From: Carcharhinus amblyrhynchos
Taxonomy: Eukaryota
Direction: 5' to 3'
Assembly: GCA_965287045.1 (NCBI GenBank)
Contig: OZ336892.1
Location: 24,490,001-24,554,000, forward strand
DNA length: 64,000 nt
In this document: positions 48,775 to 63,946 of the stretch, piece by piece
Layout: each line of letters opens with the position of its first letter
How positions within the stretch are numbered: position 1 is the first letter of the stretch
The notes under the pieces: model-generated
Databases searched by the model: none
Told to the model about the DNA's origin: nothing
The model's input: only the letters and a program-made list of their open reading frames with translations
Translations under genes and position numbers: made by a program

Positions 48775-49062
48775 ATGGGGAATAGTTGCTCGTGTACCCA
48801 CACTACTGTAACTCAAATTCACTTCTTGCAAGGTGATGGCTCTCCACCCTCGCAAAGAGAATATAAAGACCAGATACAGGTGGAAGTGAAAGCAGGGGGC
48901 AAACATGAAGTGGCAGAAGTAAAAGAACAATATGAAAAATGGAATATGCTCGCTGGAGAAGTCAAAGCACTACTCGACATTCGTCCAAGAGAAGGCAACG
49001 TGGAGGAGCTAATGTATCAACTGAATGAAACCTTTAAAGCTGACAGCCTGGTCATGACATCG
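48775..49062 (+). CDS. Calpain-like gene coding exon 1 (96-aa N-terminal extension)
   Basis: Acceptor aacag| at 48733, true ATG at 48775, MGNSCSC...LVMTS, phase-0 donor TCG|gtaatc compatible with the next exon. The link to the calpain exons is inferred. Confidence 0.72.
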
Positions 49063-61000: not shown

Positions 61001-63946
61001 AATGAATCAATGTCCTCTGGTTCTCATACCCACATCTCAAACCTGTTGCCAATGTGAAGAGATTTTCCCTGTCTACTCTGTCTATATCCCTCATGATTTT
61101 GAAAATTTCTATAAAATCTCCCCCCAGCTTCTGTTTTCTCTGGAGACCAATTCAATTTCTCCAATCTATCTTTAAAATTTAAACTGCCGCTTACTTGGCA
61201 TGTGACCAAGATATCTGGGTGATAACAATTTGGAAACAAGGGCCCATGAGTTAGTTATCAGGATAAGTAGACTGTGAGTGCAGCTCTGCTCTCAAACAAG
61301 GTTATAGATTTTAGTTTTAGAACAAGCTAAGTGCAGGACACATCTCTTTCAAGCAGGATTCAGTTGAAATTCTGTGCATTGGCTACAAAGAATTAAAACC
61401 TCTTGTTAATTGTAAGACTCCTGGCAATGAGTTGGACTTCTAGGAAAAGCCAAGCAGGGAGAGAGAGTTTTAGATGCAAAACTCCAAAGTTAAGGAATAT
61501 TAAAATTAGAAAGGTTTTGACCTGAAATGGCTCTGCTCAAGAAGCTAATGATGCCACTGTGAGCTGGAAGTCTCCAAATATGGGACCTTGGAGGAGATTA
61601 AATGGGGCAACCTTTCTAGTAAAAAGCCCAAGAAATCTCAGTTTTCACTTGAAACTTTGAAACAGTACTGAGGCCAGGTTTAATCTTCCAATTTCTGATA
61701 AGTATCTGACTTGTGTTTTTGAGGTGTAAGTCAAATAAGTGCAGAAGGCAAGTTGAGCTGGGGGAATTCTCCAGTCGTATCAGATGGCCGGTCGAAATCT
61801 TGTTGGCCTACAGAAAAGAGTGTTGGCCAAAAATTTTACAATTAGTGGGTTTGATGACCCATTTACTGGCCCCCTGCCATTAACCTGTCCCTTCAGCAGG
61901 AAATACACGAGGTGGGCTTTGATGCTGGCAATGACCAACCTGGACCTGGTGTGCTGGACCCTGAGGGTTCAGGGAGCAACACCAGCTCGCCAGCCAGCAA
62001 ATGCAAGAGGCATTCATCCCTCCACCACTGAAATAACAACACAATGCAGACATGAGGGTGACCCAACTCAAACTCCCTCAACCCCCTTTCACCCTCAGAA
62101 CCCCACTCAGTCTCTTCCCCCGCAGACCCTCATTCAGGGCCCTTTCAGGCCATGAACCATGGCAGTGTTAATAATGCACTGCATTATTGGTAATACACCT
62201 TGACCTAGCACATTGGGCCCCAAGGTATGTCCAATGCCAGGCCAGGCTGCAAAGGAAGGGTCCCTCAAGCATACTAGAGCTGGTTGGCTGGGGGCAAGGT
62301 GTTGATTTCATCCCTCTCCCCTGAGATTGGGGGGCATGGTTGGATGGCCCTTTCTAGCCCTGGCAGACCTGAAGATCGCCCCCAGCATGATGATTTCAGG
62401 CAGCTCTGTGATTAATAACTACATTCCTGCCTGTCAACTGTGAAACTTTGAAGTGGTCTAGTCAATTTAATGTCCATGCCCCCTCAACAGCTGGAAGACT
62501 CTTAAATTACAGCAGACTTCATTCTGCAGCAGAGATTTCTCTTTCTCTCTGTCAAAAGCTGAGCTGAGACCCCTTTGAAATCTTCTGACAGAGAGATGTC
62601 AATTTCACTGTGGATGGGTGGCGGGGGGGGGGGTTCCTTCTCCGCAGCTGTTCACTCAACTCCAATGTATTCCCACTGCTTTGATTTGAAATCTCTGAGC
62701 CTTCCTAGAAAGCTGAGACCTTTGAAAACTTTTGATCTCTTTCAATTTCATAGCACATACTATGAAATAGGCTTTAATTCATAGCTTAATGGATTTCTAC
62801 TCAGCCTTCAGTCATCTTATTTACCTTTCCCTTCACGCTTGAATGCATCTCAAGCACCCCCATTTTTCCTAACCACAATGTTTACAAGACAAACCTGATT
62901 GATAGCTGTGGTTTCTTCAAAGGGAATAAATGGTTTCACTTCCTATTTTGAAGACAAATATCTGTGTTAACAACATTGTCATTTGTATTCACATTCTTTG
63001 ATTTTTTTGTGTTGTAAAATTATTGAATTTTGTGTTGTAAAATTATTTGAATTTTCAAAAGAAAAAGAATATAAATAAAAATGGTGCAAGTCTTTGCTTT
63101 AATTTAGATTAAATAATATAAAATGAAAGCAGAAAATGGTAGAAGAACACTGAATAAGTCTGTTCGCATCCGTGGAGAAAAAAACACAGTTAATGTTTTG
63201 AGTTCATGTGACTTCTTTCAAGCTGAAGAATTCGGATCTCATGGATGGAATCTCTACAGTGCAGAAGGAGGCAATTCAGACCATTCAGCCTGCACCGACA
63301 ACAATCCCACACATGCCCTAATCCTGTAACGCCACACATTTACCCTGCTACTCCCCGTCATCAGTAAGGGTCAATTTAGCATAGCCAATCAACCTAACTC
63401 AGACATCTTTGGATGTGGGAGGAAAGCAGGGCAGCCAGGGGAAACCCATACAGATATAGGGAGAATGTGCAAGCTCCATATAGACATCACCTAAGGCTGG
63501 AATCAAACCGGGTCCCTGGCGCTGTGAGGCAGCCACCATGCCACTCTGTTTCTCTCTCCACAGATGCTCCTGGACCCCTTGAGAGTTCTTCCAACATTTT
63601 CTGTCTTTTAATTTCAGATTTCCAGCATCCACAGTATGTTGCTTTTAACACGTTATTTTATTTTGCCACTCCATTGTCTTCTCAACCATCAAATCAGTAT
63701 TCAATGATTGTCCTGTGCAGTTATTTGCCTACTTCTTTTGCATCAGCATTGGATTTTACCTGCAGGTTGCACGGGTCATATAAGGCGATTGAAGGAGGGT
63801 GGACACTGGATGCTCTGACAGACCTCACTGGCGGTGTTGGTGAGATCTACAGGTTTTCAGAATTTGCAGATAGGTATGAGGAACTGTACAACCATCTTGC
63901 TGCTGCTTCTCGGAAGAATGCTTTGATGGCCTGTGGAACAGGAAAG
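48775..63946 (+). CDS. Calpain-family (peptidase C2, CysPc) cysteine protease, 5' part; continues beyond the window
   Basis: Five phase-compatible exons give WEDPEF, WMR, DIIQGELGDCWF (catalytic Cys), [48 protein letters not shown] and DLTGG. Confidence 0.93.
50205..50380 (-). mobile_element. CR1 3' end fragment
   Basis: tagaaacatacgaaataggtgcaggagtaagccattcggcccttcaagcc...catggctgatc. Confidence 0.8.
51471..51602 (+). CDS. Calpain-like gene coding exon 2
   Basis: ttcag|NYQKIIEELELTGKLWEDPEFLPEPSSLTYEDIAPEGIKWMRTL|gtaac. Confidence 0.92.
51788..51968 (+). mobile_element. HE1-type SINE, 3' half
   Basis: gtgcaggttaggtggattggccatgctaaattgcccctt...(gattctat)n. Confidence 0.85.
52857..53001 (+). 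CDS. Calpain-like gene coding exon 3 (catalytic Cys codon 52932-52934)
   Basis: cttag|DLHENAFFVTDGVSKSDIIQGELGDCWFWASVATIANSRRLIEWVIPT G|gtgag (absent from the ORF track). Confidence 0.94.
55347..55992 (+). mobile_element. Young 5'-truncated CR1 copy (third copy of the subfamily)
   Basis: Near-identical to about 5770-6410; 182-aa ORF; (TTCTTATG)n tail. Confidence 0.96.
57515..57825 (+). mobile_element. HE1-type SINE, near full length
   Basis: ggtggcacagtggttagcattgc...cacagcgccaggga...gattctatgat. Confidence 0.85.
58150..60060 (+). mobile_element. Decayed GC-rich DNA transposon, probably PIF/Harbinger (Myb/SANT-like ORF remnant)
   Basis: TATA-like ctatataaa at about 58277, then ATG at 58323 reading MAAKKSALYF*DGALTRMLDGLEQRR, resembling Harbinger Myb-like proteins; abrupt rise in GC content. 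Confidence 0.5.
60198..60381 (+). CDS. Calpain-like gene coding exon 4
   Basis: cacag|(G)[60 protein letters not shown] AA|gtaagt. Confidence 0.95.
60745..61185 (-). mobile_element. Old CR1 3' fragment
   Basis: acagcacagaaggaggccattcagcc tail; ORF 61024-61239 (DRLEKLN...) resembles the CR1 ORF2 end. Confidence 0.7.
63004..63055. repeat. Two-copy tandem duplication of about 23 nt
   Basis: ttttgtgttgtaaaattattgaa followed by ttttgtgttgtaaaattatttgaa. Confidence 0.8.
63240..63543 (-). mobile_element. HE1-type SINE inserted into a palindromic repeat
   Basis: gaatctctacagtgcagaaggagg...ggtccctggcgctgtgaggcagc. Confidence 0.85.
63766..63946 (+). CDS. Calpain-like gene coding exon 5
   Basis: tgcag|(K)[60 protein letters not shown]|gttaga. 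Confidence 0.92.

Follow-up and report, generated by a model that had tools for sequence, protein, structure and literature searches.

A shark calpain gene beside PRPF8: a probable jawed-vertebrate member of the bilaterian Truncated calpain family

A 64,000-nucleotide stretch of the genome of Carcharhinus amblyrhynchos (GenBank assembly GCA_965287045.1, contig OZ336892.1, positions 24,490,001 to 24,554,000; hereafter the window) contains the 5' part of a calpain gene that probably represents the Truncated family of bilaterian calpains in jawed vertebrates, and for which we propose a role as a lipid-anchored, Ca2+-dependent protease. On this reading the gnathostome ancestor already had the gene; it persists in cartilaginous fish, bichir, sturgeons, coelacanth and lungfish and was probably lost separately by neopterygian fish and by tetrapods. 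The novelty lies in a vertebrate representative of a family described from invertebrates. It is not one of the named CAPN genes, and databases already list it under an automatic name, its orthologues being called 'calpain-A-like'.

The gene model comprises five forward-strand exons with phases 0/0/1/2/0, which together give 930 nucleotides, or 310 codons, without a stop. All five donors are GT and all four acceptors are pyrimidine-rich AG sites. The exon joins were deduced from the sequence and from gene models of other species; genomic DNA reads of close relatives (four runs) cover the introns, and the joints seen in them are repeat-derived only. The ATG at 48775 is the earliest possible start, as it is immediately preceded by an in-frame TGA. 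Exons 3, 4 and 5 each pass the Pfam cut-off for Peptidase_C2, and two other shark proteins match the model at 84% identity; the gene is therefore not a chance assembly of reading frames. The features of the gene are as follows.

48775..49062, forward strand: coding exon 1, phase 0, 96 codons; non-catalytic N-terminal arm, no Pfam match
48775..48795, forward strand: sequence motif predicted to direct N-myristoylation (Gly2, Ser6) and S-acylation (Cys5, Cys7)
48811..48832, forward strand: putative internal acceptor in exon 1, pyrimidine-rich and ending in AG
51471..51602, forward strand: exon 2, beginning of the protease core; ends in WMRTL, phase 0
52857..53001, forward strand: exon 3, Peptidase_C2 match; ends in VIPT-G, phase 1
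52905-52907, forward strand: Asp of Ca2+ site 1 (exon 3)
52914-52916, forward strand: oxyanion Gln (exon 3)
52932-52934, forward strand: catalytic Cys (exon 3)
60198..60381, forward strand: exon 4, with uninterrupted GIFRFRFWQ; ends within AFAK (Lys codon), phase 2
60344-60346, forward strand: Glu of Ca2+ site 1 (exon 4)
63766..63946, forward strand: exon 5, with the DLTGG segment; ends in CGTGK, phase 0; last exon within the window

Every motif named in the first-pass annotation of this DNA lies in its place on the forward strand. The introns it listed, after WMRTL, after VIPT-G, in AFAK and after CGTGK, are likewise retained, and to these must be added the phase-0 intron after exon 1, which it had omitted. 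QGELGDCW and GIFRFRFWQ are each free of introns, and the oxyanion Gln and the catalytic Cys are present, as it had stated. Fragmentary models of other species point to some of the same exon edges: the chimaera model begins at the first residue of exon 2, and the catshark, chimaera and coelacanth fragments end at the last residue of exon 4. Together with the bamboo shark and stingray fragments, these ends provide indirect support for introns 1, 4 and 5 being shared.

Full-length orthologues, 569-604 residues long, consist of the protease core and one CBSW domain. Pfam detects Peptidase_C2 and Calpain_III only, in three of three full-length members and in a 5'-partial lungfish protein. Neither Pfam nor the number of residues following CBSW gave any sign of a PEF or C2 domain in the full-length orthologues: all seven vertebrate members with a complete C-terminus have 10-15 such residues, compared with 137-156 for TRA-3 proteins and at least 186 for vertebrate classical calpains (16 rows). 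Pfam likewise detected neither the MIT and tandem CBSW domains of PalB/CAPN7 nor the zinc fingers and SOH domain of SOL/CAPN15. The Cys-His-Asn triad and the Trp are intact in the orthologues, with Gln and Cys read in the window itself. The ligands of the two core Ca2+ sites, which in calpain-2 are Asp96, Glu175, Glu292, Asp299, Asp321 and Glu323 (PMC4057710, Table 3), are conserved in the family and most are replaced in CAPN10. An AlphaFold model of a family protein (predicted local distance difference test score, pLDDT, 74.7; predicted template modelling score 0.76) shows the core and a beta-sandwich, with a disordered arm at residues 1-81; its best Foldseek match is m-calpain 3bow (E value 1.5e-49). 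Near the active site the vertebrate members typically have two Trp residues, in GGW before the DAL helix (63794-63796, approximate) and in CWFW after the catalytic Cys (52941-52943, approximate), which may alter the substrate pockets.

Two short motifs set the family apart from the other calpains compared. In 6/10 vertebrate and 19/22 invertebrate members the core is followed by an acidic loop of DxDxDGxxD or PD(F/Y)DxDG type, which none of 57 other calpains has; the vertebrate exceptions are three models without the region and the paddlefish protein, which has one change. This motif occurs in 65 of 473 collected proteins and in 0 of 9460 shuffles. It fits the Dx[DN]xDG form described for Ca2+ loops with a later acidic ligand (PMC3123361); the acid at position 9, two residues later, is found in 6/10 vertebrate and 16/22 invertebrate members, in a loop modelled at pLDDT <50. 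The second motif, Gly2 with nearby Cys, which follows the consensus rule for N-terminal acylation, occurs in 6/10 vertebrate and 15/22 invertebrate members and in 1/57 other calpains. The four vertebrate exceptions are two 5'-incomplete models and two with other starts, and the Gly2/Ser6 and Cys form was also found in bamboo shark, skates, sturgeon, paddlefish and bichir.

The core tree (89 rows, 321 columns, LG+C20; its bootstrap correlation of 0.985 makes the support values rough) unites the vertebrate members in a 100/100 clade, whose sister is the amphioxus protein P0032 (92/84), a sisterhood that a quick core tree did not recover. The same tree contains a clade of Truncated calpains and CAPN10 (96/97), a vertebrate classical clade (100/98) and a TRA-3 clade (99/96), and gives the window gene a terminal branch of 0.035. 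When the CBSW domain was added (45 rows, 474 columns), vertebrate and invertebrate Truncated calpains formed a clade at 92/96, with CAPN10 outside it in a weak placement. Reference rows were named CAPN2, 3, 9, 12, 10, invertebrate calpain-5 and DEK1; P0029 and P0031, classical models with duplicated domains, were left out of the trees. We conclude that the vertebrate gene belongs with the bilaterian Truncated family. The suggestion of the first-pass annotation that this is an ancient calpain holds, in that trees and tests place it inside no vertebrate subfamily sampled. Its notion of an unnamed lineage does not, as the gene groups with a family already described: P0058, one of the PEF-less invertebrate calpains that are its best matches outside vertebrates, is XP_005105403.1, the AplTRUNC1 protein of Hastings et al. 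2017 (PMC5650170), a member of a bilaterian family with a catalytic domain and one C2L/CBSW domain. Nor is DLTGG a peculiarity of the shark gene, since it is the usual form across this family.

The vertebrate and invertebrate members share the core with a single CBSW and neither PEF nor C2, DLTGG, a GPDFDGDG-type loop and the N-terminal Gly2/Cys motif. They differ in that core identity between them is about 42%, the stem branch of the vertebrate members is long (0.8-0.9), and the latter have Trp at two core positions, have lost the Pro of WxRP and carry a longer insert after NPWG.

A named vertebrate calpain that has lost its C-terminal domain, either a CAPN12/13/17-like gene without PEF or a CAPN5/6-type gene without C2, would offer another account. 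Truncation has occurred repeatedly in calpain history (PMC5650170), the best matches among solved structures are classical calpains, and the trees contained no vertebrate CAPN5/6 rows. Approximately unbiased (AU) tests run on the core and CBSW set nevertheless reject all three groupings tested, namely union with vertebrate classical calpains (p=1.9e-5), with TRA-3 (p=0.0011, four invertebrate TRA-3 rows) and with the shark 'calpain-12' P0231 (p=3.5e-4). Among 19 matches in the PDB, the core of human CAPN5 ranks last, and the family to which the window gene belongs carries the Truncated-type loop and N-terminal motif. Introns argue in the same direction: the window gene has none at HF(Q/R)|FWQ, where the invertebrate classical gene L022 has one (exactly at HFR|FWQ, phase 0), and none before IIP, where one is implied, indirectly, by the oyster calpain-5 exon fragment P0323, which begins just before these residues. 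We regard this explanation as very improbable and largely refuted.

Classical calpains (CAPN1/2/3/8/9/11/12/13/14/17) do resemble the family in core fold, triad, both core Ca2+ sites and CBSW, but they have PEF and the HFQ|FWQ intron, which it lacks, and their core identity to it is about 38%. TRA-3-type genes (CAPN5/CAPN6) are alike in lacking PEF, in combining core and CBSW and in having QG.LG.CW and F.FW uninterrupted; they differ in possessing C2, and the intron of the window gene lies 13 nucleotides further 3', in phase 1, compared with phase 0 before VIP. The claim that the intron pattern fits neither classical calpains nor CAPN5/6 stands with respect to the classical and TRA-3-type genes compared here; for vertebrates, the positions used, namely LG|DCW in classical genes and those of CAPN5/6/10, are the ones generally given for these genes, and the literature searched yielded no intron map. 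Introns after W.R.., in A.AK and after the equivalent of CGTGK are shared with classical calpains. An amphioxus Truncated fragment, P0158, spans F.FW and ends at AYAK like exon 4 of the window, an indirect likeness, and does not display the VIP-G intron. No break at the VIP-G position was seen in six loci examined, none of them a Truncated-family member, and a metagenome scan for intron-bearing Truncated-type genes, which kept 80 loci out of 495 relatives, gave none of that type.

The relationship with CAPN10, another PEF-less calpain with a similar DLTGG segment, deserves separate consideration. The vertebrate family and CAPN10 each form a clade of their own (100/100 in both cases) that includes ray-finned as well as lobe-finned members; the bony-fish ancestor therefore had both genes, which makes them paralogues rather than orthologues. 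The window gene might then be the slow-evolving sister of CAPN10, the two having arisen by an early-vertebrate duplication of one Truncated gene, after which the other copy would have doubled its CBSW, lost its Ca2+ ligands and lipid motif and become CAPN10. This would change only the ancestry of the gene. It would agree with the position of CAPN10 within the Truncated clade of the core tree, with its grouping with Truncated calpains at a bootstrap of 36 in PMC5650170, with the dominance of CAPN10 among matches to the Truncated-family segment containing DLTGG, and with the AU test, which does not reject the union of the vertebrate family and CAPN10 (p-AU 0.051). Yet the two were never sisters in free trees, mean core identity to CAPN10 is 33%, the lowest of all groups, as against 42% to invertebrate Truncated calpains, and the two amphioxus Truncated paralogues (P0032, P0167) allow an older split. 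CAPN10 also has a long branch (1.5), which makes its position unstable. It differs further in having two CBSW domains, in the absence of the Gly2 motif (0/10) and of the loop (0/10), and in its occurrence in teleosts and tetrapods. We consider a sister relationship with CAPN10 unlikely. A paper that places one amphioxus calpain nearest to those of Capitella and oyster and calls another a CAPN10 orthologue (PMC4631099) is in line with two old lineages.

Two other shark models deserve mention: 'calpain-11-like' P0281 (Scyliorhinus canicula) and 'calpain-12' P0231 (Hemiscyllium, Chiloscyllium) join rows that we presume to be CAPN13/14-like and CAPN17-like. Macqueen & Wilcox 2014 (PMC4043111), who cover classical calpains only, did not find the CAPN13/14 and CAPN17 groups in sharks.

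A search with exon 4 yielded 25 proteins from 41 candidates, ten of them at 77-93% identity: Hemitrygon, Scyliorhinus, Chiloscyllium, Narcine, Heptranchias, Amblyraja, Callorhinchus, Latimeria (2) and Protopterus. The 'calpain-11-like' protein of axolotl (P0020), a candidate amphibian member from this search, proved to be classical in the core tree. A 575-residue Heptranchias query added Acipenser, Polyodon and Polypterus; among the best 120 of 8000 scored candidates it ranked ten family proteins (at least 527 bits) and two classical models with duplicated domains ahead of amphioxus (447 bits), and no gar, teleost, amphibian, amniote or cyclostome protein came between the family and amphioxus in this ranking. 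The view that the gene was kept in cartilaginous fish only must therefore be abandoned, as bichir, sturgeons, paddlefish, coelacanth and lungfish also carry orthologues. A profile search of 1.84 billion 50%-representatives returned one vertebrate family representative among the best 150, and no further representative fell inside the vertebrate clade of a 203-row tree, from which three rows, P0165, P0180 and P0254, had been dropped for short coverage. The ESM Atlas gave generic core and CBSW clusters only. The invertebrate members identified come from amphioxus (both paralogues), tunicate, hemichordate, echinoderms, molluscs, annelids, brachiopod, bryozoan, Seison, chelicerates, centipede, ostracod and cockroach. 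In one Petrolisthes model (P0356) a protein kinase domain is joined to a Truncated-type calpain, representing either a real fusion or merged neighbours; kinase-calpain architectures are known from oyster and mosquito (PMC4631099).

Several points weigh against the family assignment or the function proposed for the gene. The His, the Asn, the acidic loop and CBSW lie beyond the window and are known from orthologues only. Tree support for membership, at 92/96 or at 96/97 in the tree whose bootstrap had not settled, is good without being maximal, and the value of 36 in PMC5650170 is that of the Truncated clade itself, with CAPN10 grouped within it. The trees contain no vertebrate CAPN5/6, CAPN7 or CAPN15, and the CAPN13/14 and CAPN17 row labels are presumed, those rows carrying other automatic names. 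The paddlefish loop has Tyr, and the full-length Heptranchias and Narcine models are without the Gly2 motif. The losses are drawn from protein databases only, which also miss the gene in several sharks; absence is more credible for teleosts and amniotes, because their CAPN10 was found in numbers, than for gar, amphibians and cyclostomes, where annotation gaps weaken the claim. Finally, the 8000 scored candidates included no full-length galeomorph shark protein: the models of Chiloscyllium (323 residues) and of the ray Hemitrygon (283 residues) end at the intron with which the window gene model ends, in CGT(G/E)K followed by intron read-through, and those of catshark and chimaera end one exon earlier, the former at AFAK.

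These model ends and the missing galeomorph protein would suit a 3'-truncated relic in the shark lineage, in which the His and Asn exons are gone and an inactive half-core or a young pseudogene is left. Against such a relic stand 930 nucleotides without stops or frameshifts, intact splice sites and a terminal branch as short as 0.035. Conservation moreover climbs from the arm to the core, as selection at the protein level predicts: exon 1 is identical to that of Chiloscyllium at 66/96 residues (30/95 in sturgeon, 29/95 in bichir), and the six further elasmobranch models spanning exon 5 agree with it at 54-58 of 60. The intact frames, the conservation gradient (66/96 to 58/60) and the short branch argue for selection. 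Models in coelacanth, bichir and sturgeon are also broken, yet other models there carry the His or Asn exons, which suggests that gene predictors miss a small next exon or a long intron. A decayed gene is, in our opinion, improbable.

If the gene is an active Truncated calpain, its product may work as follows. Myristoylation of Gly2 and palmitoylation of Cys5 and Cys7, for which the motif is present, would hold the protein at the inner face of the membrane. Ca2+ bound at the two core sites, whose residues are conserved, would align Cys, His and Asn as in calpain-1/2, by analogy within the family. The DxDxDGxxD loop between core and CBSW might provide an extra Ca2+ site in place of EF-hands. 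PEF-less calpains are as a rule independent of the small subunit and of calpastatin; this one, too, would act without a small subunit and largely free of calpastatin control, and would carry out limited cleavage of membrane-near substrates upon a local rise in Ca2+.

The anchor may not be constant. The Heptranchias and Narcine models depart from the MG form just 5' of the codon at the internal acceptor (48832); this acceptor and the starts of the two models suggest, from sequence, an isoform without the lipid motif, and hence anchored and soluble forms. An alternative first exon was sought in the window, and none of five short candidates resembled the Heptranchias or Narcine starts. The otherwise disordered arm contains a short predicted helix (about 48935-48990, W..L.GE.KALL) conserved from sharks to sturgeon and bichir, which may serve in anchoring, autoinhibition or partner binding. 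A calmodulin-binding reading of this helix was dropped, the spacing not being conserved in sturgeon.

The members listed in PMC5650170 are lophotrochozoan, horseshoe crab, sea urchin and amphioxus proteins, with no vertebrate among them; the words 'shark', 'Latimeria' and 'Callorhinchus' are absent from its main text, and its passages covered here mention neither the acylation motif nor the acidic loop. Calpains of seabream and seabass have been assigned to named genes from human queries (PMC13664112). The literature searched contains no description of a vertebrate Truncated calpain, which is not proof, as most subscription journals fell outside the search. The list of vertebrate calpains (CAPN1-15, 17) was drawn up from mammals and teleosts. 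If our interpretation is correct, an additional non-classical calpain existed in the gnathostome ancestor and was lost by the mammal and teleost model lineages, and the Truncated family, reported from invertebrates, extends into vertebrates. The gene would also provide a slow-evolving reference for the unsettled origin of CAPN10, a gene linked to diabetes, and a calpain design with a lipid anchor and an EF-hand-free Ca2+ loop would have been conserved from molluscs and arthropods to fishes.

The range of the gene (chondrichthyans, bichir, sturgeons, paddlefish, coelacanth and lungfish, with no neopterygian, frog or amniote match) parallels the pattern of electroreception loss given in PMC5429088. 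This allows speculation about a membrane-tethered Ca2+ protease of ampullary electroreceptors, lost along with them, an idea to which we give little credence. A sturgeon transcript called 'Calpain-1 catalytic subunit', without a Swiss-Prot gene name, is in a list of transcripts high in ampullary organs (PMC7720607), and a sterlet fragment of the orthologue (RXM90585.1) bears the same label; this label is generic and the match is by name alone. One supplement of a paddlefish study contains no calpain, the text of PMC13069148 gave no match, salamanders, caecilians and lampreys yielded no member, and the invertebrate members occur in animals without such an organ.

Upstream of the calpain gene, the window contains the divergently transcribed PRPF8, head-to-head with it, and a CpG-rich stretch between the two start codons.

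952..43558 (coding span approximate), reverse strand: PRPF8, start codon near 43558
45501..46250, no strand: GC/CpG-rich stretch

PRPF8 has many exons and is apparently ordinary; the four exons scanned with Pfam match PRO8NT, PROCN, PRP8 domain IV and PROCT. The stretch at 45501..46250 has a GC content of 0.54-0.56 and an observed/expected CpG ratio of 0.64-0.80, against about 0.2-0.4 in its flanks, and its composition suggests that it is probably the PRPF8 promoter and possibly a promoter shared with the calpain gene. Intronic reverse-transcriptase remnants resembling long interspersed nuclear elements, which we take to be CR1-like, lie at 4793-6310, 7900-9540, 16950-17730 and 55340-55980. 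Genomic read depth is very high at 55.1-56.4 kb and at short repeats near 46.3-46.6, 47.3-47.6, 51.8, 57.5-57.8 and 63.2-63.5 kb.

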